A DNA stretch of 54,122 nt from assembly GCA_001782165.1 (NCBI GenBank), contig MFNV01000009.1, positions 1 to 54,122 on the forward strand. Direction: 5' to 3'. Shown here piece after piece: positions 1,541-12,100 of the stretch. Position numbers and translations under genes: made by a program. Source of the stretch: Candidatus Levybacteria bacterium RIFCSPHIGHO2_01_FULL_41_15. GTDB lineage: Bacteria > Patescibacteriota > Microgenomatia > Levybacterales > UBA12049. Numbering within the stretch: the stretch's first letter is position 1; the number at the start of each line of letters is the position of its first letter. The notes beneath the pieces are model-generated. The model searched no databases. It had not been told where the DNA came from and saw only the letters and a list, made by a program, of their open reading frames with translations.

Positions 1541-1618
1541 TTGGTTAGTTGGTTAGTTCGCAGTTTGGTTATTCGGGGGTAGCAAACGAAAAACGAAGAA
1601 CTAATAACGAAGCTTCGT
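1541..1618. repeat. degenerate 7/8-bp-period inverted repeat
   Basis: ttggttag-ttggttag-ttcgcagt-ttggttat followed by aacgaaa-aacgaag-aactaat-aacgaag. Confidence 0.55.
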
Positions 1619-1626
1619 AAAATTAT

Positions 1627-1697
1627 GCCCCATCCGATCTTACTGTTCGCCTTTTCAATTCTATTCGAATACGGCTCACAGAGCAATTTCGGAGGGA
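1627..1697. repeat. long imperfect hairpin immediately 3' of tuf
   Basis: ccc(a)tccga pairs with tcggaggg; inner pairings ctgt/acag and gcc/ggc. Confidence 0.5.
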
Positions 1698-3893: not shown

Positions 3894-6038
3894 TTACTGC
3901 GCGGATACCCTTCCGGTAAAGGTCGACTTGGCAAGCATTTGTTCTACAATATTTTTTGGAACTTCCTCATAATGAGATGGCTCCATGTAATATGATGCGC
4001 GTCCCTGAGACATACTACGCAAGGTTGTTGCATAACCAGATAATTCTGCCAAAGGAACCATTGCCAGAACAATAGTCGCCCTTGCTCTTTCCTCGGTTCC
4101 CAGAATCTGCGCTCTTTTTGCGGACAGATCTCCAATAACATCTCCCATAAATTCTGAGGGCGTTGTTACTTCAACTTTCATAATCGGCTCCAAAAGTGTA
4201 AGCCCTGCCTTTTTGGCTGCCGCCTGAAGCGCCTGGCTTGCGGCAATTTTAAAGGCTATATCTGAAGAATCAACTTCATGATAACTTCCGTCATAAACTG
4301 CAACTTTCATATCAACCATAGGATACCCTAATAAAACTCCGTTCTCCATGGATTCCCTAATACCTTTCTCTACAGATGTAATAAACTCTTTAGGGATTGC
4401 TCCACCTTTTATCGCATCTACAAATTCATAACCCTCTCCCCGAGGCTTTGGTTCAAGACGAAGAAAACAATGGCCGTATTGACCCCGTCCTCCAGATTGA
4501 CGAATATATTTTCCTTCAGCTTGAGTTTCTTTCGTTATTGTTTCTTTATAGGCAACTTGGGGCGCTCCAACATTTGCCAGAACTCCAAACTCTCTTTTCA
4601 TTCGGTCCACCATAATTTCAAGCTGAAGCTCTCCGATTCCCGAAATAATTGTTTGTCCTGTCTCATGATTTGTTTTTATCACAAACGTTGGATCTTCTTC
4701 GGAAAGTCTCTTAAGAGCAAAGCCAAGTTTTTCTTGATCGACTTTGGTCTTTGGCTCAATGGCAAGAGAGATAACAGGTTCCGGGAAAGAAATCTTTTCA
4801 AGAACAATTGGTTTTTTCTCATCACATAGAGTATCTCCCGTTGCCGTATCCTTAATACCGACAAGCGCTACTATTTCTCCTGCAAATGCCTCTTTTATCT
4901 CCTCTCTTGTATTTGCGTGCATAAGAAGAATTCGGCCGACTCTTTCCGTAATATTTTTTGTACTATTATATGTATAAGAACCCGATGTTATTTTTCCCGA
5001 GTAAACTCTAACGTAGGTGAGTTTCCCCACATGAGGATCGATCTGGATCTTAAAGGCAAGACCTGAAAAATGCTCTTCAGGCACAAGTTTTCTAACCTCA
5101 TCTCCATTGGTCTTGGGATTTATGCCATGAACCTCCTTAAGATCAAGAGGGGAAGGAAGAAAGTCCACAACAGCATCAAGAAGGGGTTGAACCCCTTTGT
5201 TCCTAAGAGAGGATCCCGCATAAATTGGAACCAGTTTGTAGTCAATAACTGCCTGTCTTAATGCTCTTCTCAACTCATCCACTGAAGGCTCTTCCCCTCC
5301 CAGGTATTTTTCCAAAAGCTTATCATCTGTTTCTGCAATTTTTTCTATAAGCTTATGGCGGTACTGCTCGGCTTGCTTTTTGAGATCTTCCGGAATTTCA
5401 TCGGATATCTCGAATTTCGCGCCAAGTTGATCCGATCCCCAAATATAAGATTTTCTACTTAAAAGGTCAACTATCCCTTTAAATGTTTGTTCGACTCCGA
5501 TGGGCAAAACCATAATCGCAGGATTTGCACCAAGCCTGTCCTCTATACTTTTGACTGTTGCAAGAAAATCAGCGCCTAACTTGTCCATTTTGTTGATAAA
5601 ACAAATTCTCGGAACTTTATATTTATCCGCCTGTCTCCAAACAGTTTCTGACTGAGATTGAACTCCTTCCTCCGCATCAAGAACTGTTATACCGCCGTCA
5701 AGAACACGAAGAGATCTTTCGACTTCTGCTGTAAAATCAACATGGCCCGGTGTATCTATAATATTTATCCGATAAGGGTCCTCTCGCCCCGCGGAGCTTT
5801 GCGAAGTGTGGGTCCAATAAGTAGTTGTTGCGGCAGAAACAATAGTGATACCGCGCTCTTTCTCCTGCGCCATCCAATCCATTTGAGTAGTTCCCGCATC
5901 GATATCTCCGATTTTGTATGTTTTTCCAGTATAAAAGAGAATACGCTCGGTCGTGGTGGTTTTACCCGCGTCAATATGAGCAATAATTCCAATATTTCTA
6001 ATTTTCTCAAGTGGTACTTGTCTTTTTGTTTCAGCCAT
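3894..6038 (-). CDS. fusA: elongation factor G
   Basis: [17 protein letters not shown] and NKMD motifs. Start placed at ATG 6038 (MAETKRQ). Confidence 0.99.
5787..5812. repeat. REP-like hairpin inserted in frame in fusA
   Basis: ccccgcggagctttgcgaagtgtggg encodes part of the extra peptide [12 protein letters not shown] before [11 protein letters not shown]. Confidence 0.55.
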
Positions 6039-6047
6039 AACATAAAA

Positions 6048-6146
6048 AAATTCCAAATCTCAAGCACCAAATCCCAAATAATTTTCTAATTTTCAAAATT
6101 CGAATTTTGAATTTATTTAGAATTTAGGATTTTGGATTTAGAATTT
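6048..6146. repeat. heptamer-period inverted repeat element in the fusA 5' region
   Basis: aaattcc-aaatctc-aagcacc-aaatccc-aaataat ... gaattta-ggatttt-ggattta-gaattt. Confidence 0.8.
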
Positions 6147-6189: not shown

Positions 6190-6837
6190 TTAGCGAGGAC
6201 CGAAAATTGTAGCAAAGCGGTTGTCGGGAAGTTTTCTGGATTTTGATTTTCTGTGTGAAAAATAATCAGATGATTCGAAAGTGCAAATTCTTGGATTATA
6301 AATATTTTTCTTTAAAACTTTTAGCCTAGTTAATTCTTTTTCAACTTTTTCCCAAAGATCGATTTCATAATGACATGGTCCAATTGATGGACCAATATTA
6401 ACAACGAGATTTTTGGGATTAATATTAAACTTTTTCTTTAAAGCTTCAATTGTACTCTTGACAATCTTTTTAAGATTGTGTCTTGACACATGAATAAGTC
6501 CAATGGTTTTAGTCTTGGGATCATAAACTGCAATAGGTAAACAGTCTGCTGTTAAAATACTCAAATAAACCTCTTCTCTATTTGAAACTGCCGCATCTGC
6601 TTTTATAACAGTCTTTGTATCTTTTGCACCTCTTCCTAAATCTTTTATTGTTACTGAATAAACTTTATCTTTATGCTGAAGATATAAAACTACAAAATTG
6701 TCTAAATTTAATCCAAATTTTTCTGCAATTTTTTTTCTATTTTTTAATGCTTCTTTTTCTCCCTTAAAGAAAGACATATTCCCATCACCTACTTTTGTCG
6801 TTAGTAAAACTAATGCTGAAAAATCCTCGATTTTCAT
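6190..6837 (-). CDS. pgeF: PgeF/YfiH laccase-domain purine nucleoside phosphorylase family protein
   Basis: TADCLPI, GPSIGPCHYE, ICTFES and FSHR motifs. Confidence 0.9.
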   Translation of the reverse strand: MKIEDFSALVLLTTKVGDGNMSFFKGEKEALKNRKKIAEKFGLNLDNFVVLYLQHKDKVYSVTIKDLGRGAKDTKTVIKADAAVSNREEVYLSILTADCLPIAVYDPKTKTIGLIHVSRHNLKKIVKSTIEALKKKFNINPKNLVVNIGPSIGPCHYEIDLWEKVEKELTRLKVLKKNIYNPRICTFESSDYFSHRKSKSRKLPDNRFATIFGPR

Positions 6838-6877
6838 CCCAGAGATTATATCAAAAGTTAAGTGCTATAATTGTTTT

Positions 6878-7330
6878 ATGAAATTAAAGAAATTGATTAA
6901 GGATTATCTTGAAGAGGCAAAGTTGATGCAACTCTCAACTTGCGTTGATAATCAGCCGTGGGTCTGTCATGTTTGGTTTGCTGCTGATGAAAATTTAAAT
7001 ATTTACTGGTTTTCCTCAACTACAAGGCGGCATTCAAGAGAAGTAATGAAAAATCCAAAAGTTTCTGCTGCAATCGTTCTCCCTCACACTCCGGAAGATA
7101 TTCCGAGAGGACTACAGCTTGAGGGAGATGCGCAGCTTCTTACCGATGAGAAAGATATTCAAAAAGCAAGATCTGTTTATGAAGGACGAATATTTTCAAA
7201 AAAAGTGGTTAATGATTTAATAAAGTCCAAAGACTCACCTCATAAGTTTTATAAAATTAAACCAAGAGCATTTGTACTTTTCGATCTGGTAAACTTCCCG
7301 GAAAATCCCCGACAAGAATTAGAATTCTAA
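6878..7330 (+). CDS. pyridoxamine 5'-phosphate oxidase-like split-barrel protein (YhbP-like)
   Basis: MQLSTCVDNQPWVCHVWF...SSTTRRHS...NPKVS...GLQLEG. Start ATG 6878 follows TATAAT. Confidence 0.85.
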   Translation: MKLKKLIKDYLEEAKLMQLSTCVDNQPWVCHVWFAADENLNIYWFSSTTRRHSREVMKNPKVSAAIVLPHTPEDIPRGLQLEGDAQLLTDEKDIQKARSVYEGRIFSKKVVNDLIKSKDSPHKFYKIKPRAFVLFDLVNFPENPRQELEF

Positions 7331-7331
7331 A

Positions 7332-7361
7332 TTACCACCTGAAGTGGGCGAAGGCGCGGTT
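7332..7361 (-). repeat. diverged duplicate of the rpsG 3' end
   Basis: Encodes NRAFAHFRW* versus rpsG NKAFAHFRW* (8033-8062); 23/30 nt identical. Confidence 0.9.
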
Positions 7362-7392
7362 GACTCTCCAAATTTTTCCTCATGCAAAACTA

Positions 7393-7421
7393 TTGACAGA
7401 CTATAAATCTCTCGTTATGAT
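7393..7421 (+). promoter_or_regulatory. sigma70 promoter of the TrpR-like gene
   Basis: TTGACA (7393-7398), 17 nt, TATGAT (7416-7421). Confidence 0.8.
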
Positions 7422-7449
7422 AAGTCTAATAATCTAAATCATTAGACTT
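7422..7449. repeat. 28-bp palindromic site, copy 1 (operator or dif-like site)
   Basis: AAGTCTAATAA-TCTAAA-TCATTAGACTT. Confidence 0.9.
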
Positions 7450-7456
7450 AATAAAT

Positions 7457-7897
7457 ATGTCTCAGGTTTCGAGAAGAACACTCTCAAAAAACGTGGAAAA
7501 GAAAATGTATTCTATCTTTTTTAATGCATTGGCTCGATTATCAAACCCTTCAGATATTCAAGATTTTATTCTGGATCTTTTAGGACCAGCTGAACAAACA
7601 ATGCTAGCAAAAAGACTTGCAATCGCTGTTCTTCTGGTAAAAGGTTATCAGTATGAAACCATTAAAGATATTCTTAAAGTTTCACAGGAAACTATTGCGA
7701 GAGTAAATATGATGCTCAATTTTAGAGGTAAGGGATACAATATTGCGATTAAAAGAGTGCTTCGAGAGGAAAAGTTAGAAGATTTATTTAAAGTAATCGG
7801 AGATTCAGCCGTTGGAATTCTTCTTGAATCATCTATAAAAAGGTCTCTTAGACGAGAAAGAAAAAGAACAAGGAAACCCAAAACTGCCTTGGGATAA
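7457..7897 (+). CDS. TrpR-like (YerC/YecD-related) helix-turn-helix protein
   Basis: DFILDLLGPAEQTMLAKRLAIAVLL...YETIKDILKVSQETIARV matches the Trp-repressor-like pattern. Confidence 0.88.
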   Translation: MSQVSRRTLSKNVEKKMYSIFFNALARLSNPSDIQDFILDLLGPAEQTMLAKRLAIAVLLVKGYQYETIKDILKVSQETIARVNMMLNFRGKGYNIAIKRVLREEKLEDLFKVIGDSAVGILLESSIKRSLRRERKRTRKPKTALG

Positions 7898-7900
7898 GTT

Positions 7901-7928
7901 TAGTCTAATAATCTAAATTATTAGACTT
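7901..7928. repeat. 28-bp palindromic site, copy 2 (direct repeat of 7422-7449)
   Basis: TAGTCTAATAA-TCTAAA-TTATTAGACTT; 26/28 identical to copy 1; 3 nt after the stop codon. Confidence 0.9.
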
Positions 7929-8032
7929 TATATCGCTATTTATCTACTCAATACCCTTCTAAAAATTCTTCTATCTTTTCTTGTATTTATTAAGTACTAT
8001 GACAGATTGGATTTAAGAAAATACTTTGTGGC

Positions 8033-8506
8033 TTACCACCTGAAATGAGCGAAAGCTTTATTTGCTTCTGCCATTCTGTGGACAACGTCTCTTTTTTTAA
8101 TTGCTTCTCCTTTGTTTTCTAAGGCATCCAGAAATTCTGCTGCAAGTTTTTCAGAAAATGTATGATAGTCTTTGTTGGACCTTCTGCGTGCCGCCTGTAT
8201 AAGCCACCTTATTGCAAGCGATGTTCGTCTGTCCCCTCTTACTTCAACAGGTATCTGATAAGATGCTCCACCCACTCTTCTTGCCTTAACTTCCTGTCTA
8301 GGTTCAATATTTGAGAGCGCTTTTTCAAAAACCTCAAGAGCATCTTCCCCCTGTTTTGAGATGTTTTCCAAAGCATTATAAAAGACTTTCTGAGCAACGG
8401 TCTTTTTTCCATCGCGCATCAAGTTGTTTATGAACTTCGTTGCGAGTTTGCTTCTGTAAATCTTGTCCGGCTCAGCTTGTCTTTTCCCTGCTTTCTTATG
8501 TCTCAT
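8033..8506 (-). CDS. rpsG: 30S ribosomal protein S7
   Basis: GKKTVAQK, RRVGGASYQIPVEV and MAEANKAFAHFRW motifs. Start set at ATG 8506. Confidence 0.99.
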   Translation of the reverse strand: MRHKKAGKRQAEPDKIYRSKLATKFINNLMRDGKKTVAQKVFYNALENISKQGEDALEVFEKALSNIEPRQEVKARRVGGASYQIPVEVRGDRRTSLAIRWLIQAARRRSNKDYHTFSEKLAAEFLDALENKGEAIKKRDVVHRMAEANKAFAHFRW

Positions 8507-8509
8507 CAA

Positions 8510-8598: not shown

Positions 8599-9072
8599 TT
8601 ATCCTGCGGTTTCCGCTGGCGCCTCTGCCGTAGTCTGGGCTTCTGCGGTCGGTTTAGGCGCTGCCTCTCCTCGCTTTGTTCCGTACTTGCTTCTTGCCGT
8701 CTTCCTTCCTTCAACTCCTGCAAGATCAAACTTGCCTCTTACAATATGGTATTTAACACCCGGCAAATCTTTAACTCTTCCTCCCCGCACCAAAACAATT
8801 CCATGTTCTGAAAGCGCATGTCCAATTCCTTGAATATAAGCAGTTACTTCCATTTTGTTTGAAAGCTTAACTCTTGCAACCTTTCGAAGAGCAGAATTAG
8901 GCTTTCTAGGAGTCATTGTTTTAACAAGAGTCACTACCCCTCTTTTTTGAGGAGCTGTTATTGATTTGTAAACCTGGTCTTTGGAATTAAATATTCTTCG
9001 TAGTGCTGTTGACCTGGTTTTTTTAACTTTGCTCTTTCTTCCTTTTCTTGAAAGCTGTGATAAGGTAGGCAT
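8599..9072 (-). CDS. rpsL: 30S ribosomal protein S12 with C-terminal Ala/Glu-rich extension
   Basis: [10 protein letters not shown] and [12 protein letters not shown] motifs. Confidence 0.99.
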
Positions 9073-9088
9073 CGTTTTAAATTTTTTA

Positions 9089-9165
9089 ATTACTAATTTC
9101 TAATTGACCTAAAATTTAGAAATTAGATCAATTAGGTTAATCAGGTTAATTAGGTTAATTGAAGT
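9089..9165. repeat. hairpin plus 9-bp-period tandem repeat between rpoC and rpsL
   Basis: ctaatttctaa...ttagaaattag stem; aattagatc-aattaggtt-aatcaggtt-aattaggtt-aattgaagt. Confidence 0.7.
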
Positions 9166-9169
9166 AGTA

Positions 9170-12100
9170 TTATACATTATCTGCGGAAGGTTGTTCAACT
9201 CCAATTTTATCGGGGTCAACCCCCGTTTGAGGAGGAAAGGGTTCGAAAGATCCCATCTCAAAATCGGTGGAGACTGAATCTGGGGCAACAGGAATCAGTC
9301 TTCCAATAATAACGTTTTCCTTAAGACCCATAAGCCTATCCTCCTGTCCCTGTAAAACAGCCTCTGTAAGAACCTTAGTCGTTTCCTGGAATGATGCTGC
9401 AGAAAGCCAGGAATCCGAGAAAAGTGATGATTTAGTAATCCCAAGAAGAATTTGTCTCGCAGTTGCAGGCTCCCCTCCCTGAGAAAGTGTTTCTGCATTT
9501 ATCTCCTCAAACTTAACTTTTGTTATGAAATCTCCGGGAATAAGAGAAGTGTCTCCGACTGTTTCAATTACCACCTTATCTGACATTTTTCGCAATATTA
9601 CCTCAAAATGTTTATCGTTAATTTCAATACCTTGAAATTCGTAAACTCTCTGAGCTTCTGCGATTATGTACCTTTGAGCGTCAATAATTCCCCTTATTTT
9701 CAGAATGTCTTTTGGATCAAGGTATCCCTGGGCAAGCTGAGACCCTGAGGAGATTGCATCACCGTCTTCTACTGTCAGCTCAGATGCCAAAGGGATAAAA
9801 TATTCTCTCTCTTCAGGAGGTTTAGTTCTTGGATTTCGAACTTTAACAATATATCCGTCCTCTGTTTTTTCGATCTTTATCTTTCCTGCAATATCAGACA
9901 TGGGAGAAAGATTCTTGGGGGTTCTCATTTCAAAAAGCTCCTCAACTCGGGGTAACCCTTGGGTAACATCGGACATTACTACCCCCCCAAAATGTCTTAC
10001 TCTCATGGTTAGCTGAGTCCCGGGTTCTCCAATTGACTGCGCCGCGATAACCCCCACGGGAACCCCTATTTTTACTTTTCTCTTGGTTGAAAAATCCCAA
10101 CCATAACAGGAGGCACATACCCCATATTCTATCTTGCAGATAAGAGGAGACCTTAAGTATACCTCTTCGATGTCACCGGACGAAACAAGATGAGCTTTCT
10201 CCTCATTAAGCTCCCCGCCTTCTTTAACAATTACTTTTTTGTTTTTTTTAGAAACTATATTTGATGCTGCAATTCTTCCCAATATTCTGTCATAAAAGGT
10301 TGCTCTTCTATCAGGCTCCTCTTTTAATACTGCGATTCCGTCTTTTGTTCCGCAATCTTCGCCTCTTATGATAACATCATGAGCAACATCAACCAACCTT
10401 CGCGTAAGATAACCGGCATTTGCAGTCTTTAAAGCAGAATCTGTCAGACCTTTTCTTGAACCCCGCGCACTTGCTACATATTCAAAAATTGATAATCCTT
10501 CCCTGAAGTTCGATTTAATTGGTAACTCAACTATTTTCCCTAGTGGATCTAGGATTAGACCTCTTATTGCAGACAGCTGCTTAACTTGCTCTTTACCTGC
10601 CCTAGCGCCTTCTGAATCAATAATTACCTTGATAGGGTTTTCGGATCTTAAGGAAGCCCAGGTTTTATCCGCAAGTTCATCAGTGATTGCAAGCCATACA
10701 TCATTCTCAAGTCTTTTTCTTTCATCATTTGTAATAAGGCCCTGCTGGTATTCAATCTCAATTTCTTTAATTTTCCTTTCGGCGTCCTGGATGCTTTTAT
10801 CTTTTCCTTCCACCATTTGATTATCAAATACCGAAACTGAAACACCTGATATTGTTGCTCCATAGAATCCGAGAGTCTTTATATTGTCTATAAGTTTCTC
10901 AACTTCCTCCGGGGAATAATTTGCTATAGCATGTGTTACTATTTTTTTGATGCCCGATGCTTTTACGGGGTTGTTTATAAATTCTAAAGTTTTAGGAAGT
11001 TTTTCGTTAAACATTATTCTTCCCACCGTTGTTTCGGTAATTTTGCCATCTATTCTGACTTTTATGGGTTCTCTGAATTTTATTTTGAACAAAGAATGGG
11101 CAAGAATAGCCTCATCTGGTGATCCAAAAACAGACTGAGAATCATTCCTTAAGGTTTCATCAAGACTTGTAAGATAGAATATTCCAACCGCCATTTCTTT
11201 GTTTGGAAGAGTTATGGGACTTCCATCGGCGGGTTTTAAAAGATTGTGCCTTGGCATCATCAGATTCACTGCTTCTTCCTTGGCCATGTTGGACAAAGGT
11301 ATATGAACTGCCATTTGATCTCCGTCAAAATCAGCATTGTAACCGGCACACACGCATGGATGAAGGCTTATTGCTGATCCCTCTATAAGTACCGGGTAGA
11401 AAGCCTGAATTCCCAATTTATGTAAAGTTGGTGCGCGGTTTAAAAGAACTGGATGATTTTTGGTAATTTCCTCAAGAATATCAAATACCTCAGGGGGTCT
11501 TTTTTCAATAAACCTTTTTGCTGATTTTATATTTGGGGCATATCCTCTTACAATTACTTCGCGCAAAACAAAAGGCTTAAACATTTCAAGAGCCATCTCT
11601 TTAGGAAGGCCGCATTCAGAAAGATCAAGTTCTGGACCAACGACAATAACAGATCTTCCTGAATAATCCACTCTTTTACCTAGGAGGTTTTGCCTAAATC
11701 TTCCCTGTTTTCCCCTAAGCATGTCTGATAGTGATCTTAAAGGAGAGGCTACTACCTGTGTTGATCTTTGGGATACATCAATCAATGCATCGACTGACTC
11801 CTGAAGCATCCTTTTTTCGTTTCGTAAGATTATTTCAGGAGCTCCAAGAATTATAAGATGCTTTAATCTGTTATTTCTGTTAATAACACGTCTATACAAA
11901 TCATTAAGATCAGATGTCGCAAATCTTCCTCCTGCAAGCTGTACCATGGGGCGAAGATCAGGCGGGAGAACAGGCAGAACTGAAATAACCATAGAGGAAG
12001 GGGAAACACCCGCCTTTCTCATTGATTCAATAAGTCTTAATCTCTTGATAAGCTTAAGATATTTCTGTCCTTTTGATTTTTCTGCTTCTTTTCGAAGTTT

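Follow-up and report, generated by a model that had tools for sequence, protein, structure and literature searches.

The DNA analysed here (the window) is a stretch of 54,122 nucleotides from contig C9 of the genome of Candidatus Levybacteria bacterium RIFCSPHIGHO2_01_FULL_41_15 (designated G000; 728 kb, 98.6% complete and AT-rich). Its minus strand carries rpoC, rpsL and rpsG, with fusA following 2 kb further on. The rpsG–fusA interval is occupied by a TrpR/YerC-YecD-like gene, an orphan copy of the rpsG end, a convergent PNPOx-like gene and a YfiH-like gene (Table 1). We focus on the orphan, which forms a pair of direct repeats with the end of the intact rpsG. The two ends are referred to as tails, the one belonging to the gene being proximal and the spare one distal; G numbers denote genomes, L numbers loci or metagenome contigs, and C numbers contigs of G000.

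Table 1 Features of the rpsG–fusA interval, in the order read from rpsG (positions in the window).
Feature	Position	Strand	Basis
rpsG (ribosomal protein S7), 158 aa, intact	8033..8509	-	PF00177, E 3e-57; 79% aa identity to G008
Working rpsG end NKAFAHFRW-stop, proximal repeat	8033..8062	-	Sequence read, pattern search
Spacer from rpsG stop to cassette, variable among cassette carriers	7928..8032		Segment alignment
26-nt perfect palindrome just past the TrpR-like stop	7902..7927		RNA fold -13.9 kcal/mol, z -3.7
Terminator-like hairpin and T-run in rpsG direction, antisense within the TrpR 3′ end	7877..7893	-	Consensus scan
TrpR/YerC-YecD family gene, 146 aa, cargo	7457..7897	+	PF01371, TIGR02531
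26-nt perfect palindrome between -10 box and ATG of the TrpR-like gene	7423..7448		Palindrome search
Sigma-70-like promoter TTGACA-17-TATGAT of the TrpR-like gene	7393..7421	+	Best match in region, 11/12
Orphan rpsG end NRAFAHFRW-stop, distal repeat; outside any long open reading frame (ORF)	7332..7361	-	Sequence read, pattern search
PNPOx-like gene, convergent to the orphan	6698..7330	+	PF01243
YfiH/Cu-oxidase_4 family gene between orphan and fusA	6190..6837	-	PF02578, E 5e-40
fusA (EF-G), ancestral downstream neighbour of rpsG	3894..6056	-	ORF and homology

Over the last 24 nt, the orphan agrees with the working end at 21 positions, and the three differences (two GCT/GCC, one CAT/CAC) all fall on third codon positions, bearing out the synonymous divergence proposed in a first-pass annotation of the sequence. 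Extending the comparison to 30 nt gives 23/30 matches and a single amino-acid change, K to R; the final 12 nt are identical. The two ends start 701 nt apart. Searching the window with the 24-nt pattern and up to three mismatches returned only these two places, and the same search found nothing in any of 100 dinucleotide-preserving shuffles. Upstream of the orphan, no significant rpsG similarity was detected (the local alignment scored 16, shuffles 14.0 on average with an sd of 2.4), and as this holds for each of five carriers of the layout, a longer hidden duplication was ruled out. The orphan folds no better than shuffled sequence (z +1.4), and the covariance models of Rfam 15 gave no match between 5900 and 9300 at E values up to 1. 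A transposon or miniature inverted-repeat transposable element (MITE) with target-site duplication was likewise dismissed, the repeats being 24–100 nt long and diverged; the palindromes of Table 1 lie within the insert, at distances of 105 and 61 nt from the two tails, and not at its ends as the terminal repeats of a MITE would.

Contigs without a single difference cover positions 6900–7444 in the public runs X1, X2 and X3 and 6956–7452 in run X7, so the junction on the orphan/PNPOx side is not an assembly join; the runs with the best exact contigs may include the sample from which the window was assembled. No exact contig among those listed bridges the junction at 8033 on the rpsG side. The assembly chimera that the first-pass annotation had named as its possible undoing is thus discounted at the first junction; as for the second, the layout is found in other assemblies as well (see below). 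One low-depth X7 contig joins 7362 to 8067 with 3 extra letters, and other run contigs join 7362 to 8127 with sides of 25 nt. These cassette-free joints (sides of 25–31 nt, 90% likeness) most likely represent single-tail rpsG genes of other organisms and were set aside as such.

The only ORF with a family match between the two ends is the TrpR-like gene, whose product scores against Pfam Trp_repressor PF01371 (E 2.1e-14, 53.8 bits; cut-off 27) and, just above the cut-off of 42.2 bits, against the NCBIfam YerC/YecD family TIGR02531 (42.9 bits). Both the TrpR-like assignment and the lack of an integrase at the locus had been noted in the first-pass annotation, and indeed no recombinase was found between the repeats; nor did the insert, or the other cargo that was scanned, contain a LAGLIDADG or GIY-YIG homing endonuclease domain. 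The gene appears to be a self-contained module. The palindrome between its -10 box and start codon is likely its operator, which a dimer of the TrpR-like protein would bind, and the one past its stop codon may serve as terminator and/or second operator. Conservation extends to these signals: the segment 7393–7456, with promoter and first operator, is retained at 62–64 of 64 positions in the metagenome contigs L144–L146, and the downstream palindrome at 24–25 of 26. The 26-nt palindrome occurs four times in the genome, twice flanking the TrpR-like gene, and could be the operator of the regulator, a bidirectional terminator, or both. Its remaining copies lie at C2:60618-60643 and C6:63807-63832; one of them is downstream of a tyrS-like and upstream of a recG-like ORF (identified from translations), the other between two convergent ORFs. 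The consensus scan that gave the antisense terminator-like hairpin found two such sites against 1.8 expected from shuffles.

The first-pass annotation had regarded the orphan as a scar of an integration. It is not peculiar to this genome: the same tail–cassette–orphan layout recurs in genome G079 and in the four metagenome contigs L144–L147. G079, of the same genus as G008, the closest rpsG relative, has the closest TrpR-like homologue among the 245 genomes of the order (95% aa identity). Overall, the identity of the TrpR-like protein to that of the window is 95–97% in G079, L143, L144 and L145, 79% in L146 and 63–69% in G179, L147 (67%), L148 and G038. In G079, a different convergent gene comes next, an ORF of the Peptidase_S51 family that has its stop codon inside the orphan; L145 equals G079 in layout and both tail sequences, may be the same organism and hence is not an independent case. 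In L144, the order is rpsG, tail, cassette and orphan, with fusA starting ~96 nt past the orphan and no PNPOx-like gene; L146 shows the same succession up to the orphan. Other carriers depart from the scheme. L143 has rpsG, its tail, a 'type A' spacer (see below), a second tail and then the cassette, without a distal orphan; in L149/G179 the cassette follows rpsG natively, again without orphan; in G038, which belongs to another family, the module lies near rpsG; and L148 is too short on the orphan side for the orphan to be judged. At the place that the orphan takes in other carriers, directly behind the TrpR promoter, L143 encodes a 379-aa ORF (oriented positions 4602–5741).

Segment-wise comparison with four of these carriers (Table 2) indicates which parts of the locus travel. 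The cassette is 93–96% identical to that of L145 although rpsG and fusA have diverged (whole rpsG is 70–74% identical to seven relatives and 70.9% to the G079-like gene; fusA is 79.7% identical to that of G079), which shows horizontal exchange of the cassette among lineages. With L146, the window has the 5′ half of the TrpR-like gene and the entire orphan in common but not the 3′ half, so the cassettes are mosaics. In the comparison with L144, the mismatches in the working tail cluster in its second half and the following 105 nt are unrelated, placing one breakpoint inside the working tail of the window. At the other side, similarity stops exactly at the stop codon of the orphan in four different downstream contexts. 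The orphan matches the working rpsG end of G008, a member of another genus, at 29 of 30 positions, in line with the first-pass proposal that it came from a functional allele. The same annotation had held that the resident tail was replaced and that the orphan is what was left of the old one. Our comparison suggests the reverse: the working end, or at least its first half, appears to be the resident one and looks vertically inherited, because the 60 nt before it agree with L144, the closest host relative, at 59 positions and because the orphan goes with the cassette, as part of the travelling block. Exchange within the body of rpsG was ruled out, as the nearest neighbour never switched when 90-nt windows were compared with seven relatives (57–86% identity throughout). 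The identical run shared by the two tails is 12 nt long and at the 3′ end in the window, 14 nt and in the middle in G079, and 17 nt in L147; the two tails of L144 and of L146 share runs of only 5–8 nt.

Table 2 Matching positions between the window and four carriers of the layout, by segment in the direction of rpsG.
Segment	L144	L145	L146	L147
60 nt of rpsG before the tail	59/60	46/60	43/60	47/60
Working tail	25/30	22/30	25/30	22/30
rpsG stop to palindrome 2	35/105	86/105	34/105	43/105
TrpR 3′ half	209/220	211/220	148/220	150/220
TrpR 5′ half	213/221	206/221	210/221	169/221
Promoter and operator	63/64	62/64	64/64	44/64
Orphan	27/30	28/30	30/30	22/30
60 nt past the orphan	17/60	18/60	23/60	17/60

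Spare rpsG ends are not confined to carriers of the TrpR-like gene. A degenerate AFAHFRW-stop pattern with up to two mismatches was searched in the 245 genomes of the order. Among the matches listed, 12 genomes had two copies on the same contig and strand, and separate confirmation of G006 and G016 brings the number of order genomes with paired tails to at least 14 of 245, at spacings of 41, 55, 57, 60, 76, 112, 118, 283, 683, 695, 701, 947, 1092 and 3938 nt. Of 401 genomes sampled evenly from the class, 34 had two or three matches on one strand (the tally includes the unpublished genome G310, with a single match, which enters no other claim). Positions were listed for 18 of these 34; in two the copies lie on different contigs, and in the other 16 they are 59–127 nt apart, the first copy being the rpsG end in every case. 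G274 has a third copy 1.8 kb further on, and G601 and G301 have three tails in a row, with a degenerate fourth in G601. The rpsG end is therefore a recurrent spot of recombination and insertion in many groundwater bacteria of the host class. The first-pass annotation had named independent variation of orphan and TrpR-like gene among relatives as a refutation of its reading, and in this wider group the two do vary independently: G179/L149 and L143 have the cassette but no orphan, and no TrpR accompanies the extra tails of 11 of the 14 order genomes with a tail pair or those of any of the 16 class genomes examined.

The DNA between tails is either a structured spacer of 17–90 nt or unrelated cargo genes. 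The latter comprise a LigT-like phosphoesterase in G038 (where the TrpR-like gene follows a decayed orphan), an 84-aa ORF and an AbiEii nucleotidyltransferase in G016, an AAA_14/DUF4143 ATPase in G274, PKD, CarboxypepD_reg and TPR/PMT-like proteins in G229, and two ORFs without family in G006. None of ten cargo or flanking ORFs scanned in five other genomes is a recombinase; the families represented are PKD, CarboxypepD_reg, TPR/PMT, AbiEii, AAA_14 with DUF4143, and LigT, together with a Crp-like helix-turn-helix (HTH) protein just past an orphan and three ORFs without family. Repeat length varies with the event (about 24–31, 43, 46 or 100 nt), and the right edge of every repeat is the stop codon, where homology between genomes ends. 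The single-tail congeners G162, G159 and G483 were considered as empty sites and set aside; right behind the tail, their downstream DNA is not collinear with that of the double-tail genomes, so exact insertion edges cannot be read from them.

Across 37 proximal/distal pairs (which include relatives and are thus not independent), we counted 142 synonymous against 17 non-synonymous codon differences, whereas random placement of the same changes would give 132 non-synonymous ones (sd 5). By this measure, the two copies look like two working alleles. Distal tails also share the variant of their host at position 153 (A, G or S) and in the last two residues (R/K, W/F). Seven of them (G531, G486, G038, G125, G550, G609 and G438) carry stop or missense changes; some distal copies are thus decaying, as expected of a relic. 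At the other extreme, young pairs are nearly identical, with 31/31 matches in G229, 30/30 in G423, one mismatch in about 46 nt in G016 and one in about 43 nt between tails 1 and 3 of G274; the repeat of G006 spans about 100 nt at 87% identity. In three genera, the distal copy is closer than the proximal one to the end found in a single-tail congener: 23 of 24 positions agree between the G163 orphan and the tail of G162, and 22 of 24 between the G569 orphan and the tail of G483; the orphans of G038 and G049 have the ending typical of their genus. The window, where the proximal end appears to be resident, is the reverse of these genera, and both outcomes are expected if the crossover falls at either end of the tail. 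Base composition sets the gene end apart as well. In 30 relatives, the G+C share at third codon positions (GC3) is 0.556 over the last nine codons of rpsG compared with 0.304 over the rest of the gene, and TTC makes up 32 of 65 Phe codons in tails versus 18 of 135 in gene bodies. By hand count, G/C-ending codons are more frequent in the distal than in the proximal copy in 23 pairs, less frequent in 8 and equally frequent in 6.

The short spacers fall into recognizable types that recur across families. Type A has the form ...ATGAAGTCCC...GGGAC, with or without a conserved inner part of ~60 nt; type B reads GCYTTGCG-ATAGTT...AACTAT-CT, followed by a tail starting at AAR; and a third type starts with GCCGGARTTTAC. 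The left edge of the distal copy is constant for each spacer type across families (AAY... after type A, CTAAAR... after type B). Moreover, the sequence right after the proximal stop is often the reverse complement of the proximal tail, and this 'anti-tail' covaries with the synonymous codons of the tail in G049, G168, G163, G034 and G044, with a 12+8-bp case in G577/G569; the GCYTT of type B can pair with the AARGC of either tail. In seven loci of relatives, type A and B spacers gave no Rfam match at gathering score, the window copy at 1610–1697 lying outside that scan. Mimicry of the S7 site in 16S rRNA was considered and dropped, as nine type A copies scored at the shuffle mean against the 16S gene of G274; G000 has no assembled 16S gene. 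The type A core is not confined to rpsG and is present at three loci each in G274, G049 and G163 and at four in G000 (C9:1646, C9:212142, C10:39735 and C5:26636, the last between ftsA- and ftsZ-like ORFs). The copy in the window is a conserved, stem-closed element of ~85 nt (1610–1697, minus strand) directly after the stop codon of tuf (EF-Tu; 1698–1700). One copy in G274 lies directly upstream of what appears, by reading of the sequence, to be the start of the RNase P RNA.

A genome-wide search for duplicated gene ends, as the first-pass annotation had suggested, was run on 879 ORFs of at least 100 aa by looking for a copy of the last 30 nt within 5 kb downstream. It yielded 12 matches downstream, compared with 8 in the upstream control, and two further convincing pairs besides rpsG. 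In tsaD (C7:60051-61145), the last eight codons and the stop are repeated 62 nt on (21/30 nt), and all five codon differences in the shared part (NPELYFY-stop) are synonymous; among 41 genomes, two adjacent copies of the tsaD end are present only in G000. A small hairpin lies between them (C7:61122-61207). The other gene, pepP (C2, ~8800–9850, minus strand), has a 37-nt copy of its end (28/37) about 940 nt downstream, and the only sizeable gene in between encodes a 259-aa Xer-like tyrosine recombinase (Phage_int_SAM_1 and Phage_integrase); hisS follows. The match of this recombinase stops at profile position 142 of 172, and its best profile matches—XerD, XerA and XerC—are all below cut-offs. 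The pepP–Xer-like–hisS order is kept in G008, G180 and G079, the orphan pepP end being conserved at 25/30 in G079 and 21/30 in G008, with hardly a trace left in G180. With its last bases, the orphan runs into a TATAAT situated a few nt before the hisS start. An orphan gene end can therefore persist across genera, at least where it overlaps signals of a neighbour. Homologues of this recombinase occur in 15 of the 245 order genomes (G000 included), none of them at the rpsG position. G000 has four PF00589 matches in all, the nearest on the contig of the window being at C9:190649, far outside the window. Within C5:21000-26600, a 365-aa tyrosine recombinase is convergent to the 3′ end of the ftsZ-like ORF and accompanied by small ORFs, one of them HTH-like by eye; judged from its layout, this locus is possibly an integrated element at another gene end.

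As to the surroundings of the repeat pair, the PNPOx-like gene has its stop codon 1 nt away from the orphan. Alignments with homologues in relatives begin at residue ~57–63, and the true start is likely near 6878. The rpsG–fusA gap ranges from -16 to 2676 nt in relatives, and its gene content differs by genus (loci L035–L042), with short-chain dehydrogenase/reductase (SDR), PNPOx, toxin–antitoxin-like pairs, hydrolases and cyclophilin-like proteins identified from translations. The str operon is a hotspot of gene gain in the host family. The 157-aa rpsL product (8599–9072, minus strand) continues past the usual S12 end in a C-terminal extension that abounds in Ala, Glu, Thr and Pro, and alignments with relatives reach no further than about residue 128–157.

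On this evidence, we consider it probable that the orphan was made by recombination within the conserved rpsG end that brought in, or later exchanged, the TrpR module, and that it is one instance of a process recurrent in the class. A crossover within the ~30 conserved nt that end rpsG would have joined foreign DNA to the chromosome and given rise to the direct-repeat pair. The incoming DNA would have had its own rpsG end beside the self-contained TrpR/YerC module (promoter, operator palindrome, gene and palindrome), which in other lineages is native behind rpsG. If the fragment was circularised, a single crossover would leave rpsG intact and place a second end beyond the insert, against the old downstream DNA of the recipient; a double crossover, with rpsG as left arm and a pre-existing orphan as right arm, would have the same outcome, and no element-encoded integrase would be needed. 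Homologous recombination would then have carried the tail–cassette–tail unit among related lineages, the breakpoints falling in the tails or at their edges, and the orphan in this genome would now be without function. Much more tentatively, as the likeliest of several candidates, we suggest that host homologous recombination, using the rpsG end as a short homology arm, made the joints. This is favoured because repeat lengths vary, because the right edge coincides with the end of homology between genomes, because the examined cargo is free of recombinases, and because breakpoints and mosaics show homologous exchange to be active here. Several points weigh against it. Thirty nt of diverged homology are at the lower limit for RecA-type recombination, and a distal left edge that is constant per spacer type fits a defined site or a single origin better than random fragment ends. 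The pepP end pair brackets an Xer-like gene, so recombinase-linked tail duplication exists in this lineage, and large elements split over contigs would escape our survey. Furthermore, the orphan is identical between window and L146 although the TrpR 3′ halves are only 67% identical; with the G/C-richer distal codons, this hints at nucleotide-level constraint or biased conversion.

Some of these points would find a ready explanation if the last ~30 nt of rpsG were an attB site, the inserts being elements (or remnants of such) that lack an integrase and rely on a tyrosine recombinase acting in trans, and the tails being attL and attR. The architecture is classic for such elements, with the 3′ end of a gene restored and direct repeats ending at the stop; similarity breaks off abruptly once the orphan stop is reached, each spacer type has a constant left edge, the genome has the PF00589 matches listed above, and the pepP end is duplicated around an Xer-like gene as its sole cargo in a layout kept in G008 and G079. 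Elements sitting at 3′ ends of genes for ribosomal proteins, rpsI among them, are on record, too, in what PMC5090054 relates of ICEs (integrative, conjugative elements) and IMEs (integrative, mobilizable elements). Yet no recombinase stands beside any rpsG tail in the loci examined, and the homologues of the pepP-linked enzyme, whose own match ends short of the full profile, are never at the rpsG position. The tails of the carriers seem to have no identical core in common, their identical runs differing in place, the repeat length differs between events, and inserts of 17–90 nt would be odd as integrative elements. We therefore regard site-specific integration, the main rival reading, as unlikely. 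Simple tandem duplication of the gene end in place, followed by drift and later insertion of the cassette without any foreign allele, would account for the near-identity of the young pairs in G229, G423, G016 and G274. A neutral distal copy should, however, gather mostly non-synonymous changes, contrary to the 17 observed against about 132 expected, and the window orphan is closer to the working end of another genus (29/30) and to the orphans of other cassettes (27–30/30) than to the end of its own gene (23/30), which makes this a very improbable course of events. Still less weight attaches to an assembly chimera or chance similarity: although the junction at 8033 is not bridged by any listed exact contig, the negative shuffles, the exact contigs over the orphan in four runs and the recurrence of the layout in the assemblies of G079 and L144–L147 (with the caveat on L145 given above) make it close to negligible.

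A different kind of explanation, compatible with either way of recombining, concerns why a distal tail is kept. It may have a second job at the nucleotide level, as part of the signals of a neighbour, as the overlapping end of a convergent gene, or in an RNA switch with the 'anti-tail' hairpins; insertions at this boundary would then survive only with the boundary segment duplicated, after which the coding copy drifts. This would explain why distal copies are GC-rich and well kept, and also the pairing patterns: the raised GC3 and TTC share of tails, the excess of GC-richer distal copies, and the covarying reverse complement behind the proximal stop together with the type B GCYTT that can pair with either tail. 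Neighbours that might be served do exist. The pepP orphan is kept in three genera where it overlaps the TATAAT just upstream of hisS, the stop of a convergent gene lies inside the distal tail of G079, a convergent ORF overlaps the third tail of G274 by 11 nt (judged from coordinates), and in G022 fusA starts 2 nt past the rpsG stop, so that the AGGT of the tail would be its ribosome-binding site. In the window, by contrast, a convergent gene ends next to the orphan, which cannot serve fusA here, and neither a fold, nor an Rfam match, nor a servable neighbour was found for it. The downstream context of distal tails differs from genome to genome, several carry stops or missense changes, and a need for the last 9–12 nt alone would not explain 24–30 nt with coding-type variation. 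Such a second job thus seems rather doubtful to us as the reason for the spare tails. More speculative still, and in our judgement a long shot, is a dedicated site of cassette acquisition at the rpsG end across the class, an integron-like hotspot without a cassette-borne integrase in which spare tails, 'anti-tail' hairpins and spacers are working parts; these might act as recombination sites recognized in the folded state of the DNA, or as an RNA switch that responds to completion of S7 by ribosomes and sets downstream expression.

Integrative elements that restore the gene end they enter include e14 and phage 21 in icd of Escherichia coli and the streptococcal ICEs and IMEs at rplL, rpsI and rpmG. 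The rpsG locus resembles them in that foreign DNA lies between direct repeats of a gene end, the host gene remains whole, most differences in the second copy are synonymous and the target is a conserved housekeeping or ribosomal gene; repeats of the attL/attR type are present here as the pair described above. It differs from them in having neither integrase nor excisionase in or beside the rpsG inserts examined, inserts as short as 17–90 nt, up to three (possibly four) tandem tails and a variable repeat length. One of them is IMESag-rpsI, an integrative element at the rpsI 3′ end, to the extent that PMC5090054 covers it. Fungal mitochondrial mORFs, according to the parts of PMC3630166 drawn on here, bring in a foreign C-terminal segment and displace the native one, as in Allomyces atp6 and Glomus atp6, atp9, cox2 and nad3. 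The native piece then remains unexpressed downstream, the two ends differ much in DNA and little in protein, and the native end matches close relatives, as in several relatives here. Unlike in the window, where the proximal end matches the closest relative, it is the displaced end that does so, and those mORFs are driven by LAGLIDADG or GIY-YIG homing endonucleases, of which we found none. The architecture is that of gene-end-restoring elements and mitochondrial mORF hybrids, with the defining enzymes of both systems missing here. Campbell-type insertion-duplication and homology-facilitated illegitimate recombination, as far as PMC3240628 and PMC3784515 describe them, likewise involve a short-homology anchor, possible duplication and no dedicated integrase; experiments demonstrated them in cultivated bacteria and with anchors hundreds of bases long, whereas in the present case an anchor of ~30 nt would have to suffice and the process is deduced from its products. 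Integron cassettes, finally, are similar in that small, mostly single-gene cargo gathers at one site with the recombinase outside the cassette, each unit being followed by a short boundary with an imperfect palindrome. Here, the boundary is instead copied from the end of a coding gene, and the TrpR cassette comes with a promoter of its own; no attC, attI or IntI turned up, with no search by attC or IntI models having been made. In the literature searched (full text without supplements), we found nothing on duplicated rpsG ends in candidate-phyla-radiation bacteria.

These bacteria have very small, tightly packed genomes, and the routes by which they gain genes are little known. The end of the S7 gene, among the most conserved of the genome, repeatedly has foreign DNA behind it, ranging from 40-nt hairpins to toxin–antitoxin genes and regulators, and each such insertion leaves a second, coding-like gene end. 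For annotation, this means that orphan ends and conserved spacers are easily mistaken for pseudogenes or small ORFs. Should a recombinase or an RNA function be involved instead of homologous exchange, the spare tails would mark an undescribed system. If, on the other hand, short conserved gene ends do act as portable homology arms, they would provide uncultivated bacteria with a route of gene gain both simple and general, which would also explain the odd codon usage at gene ends.

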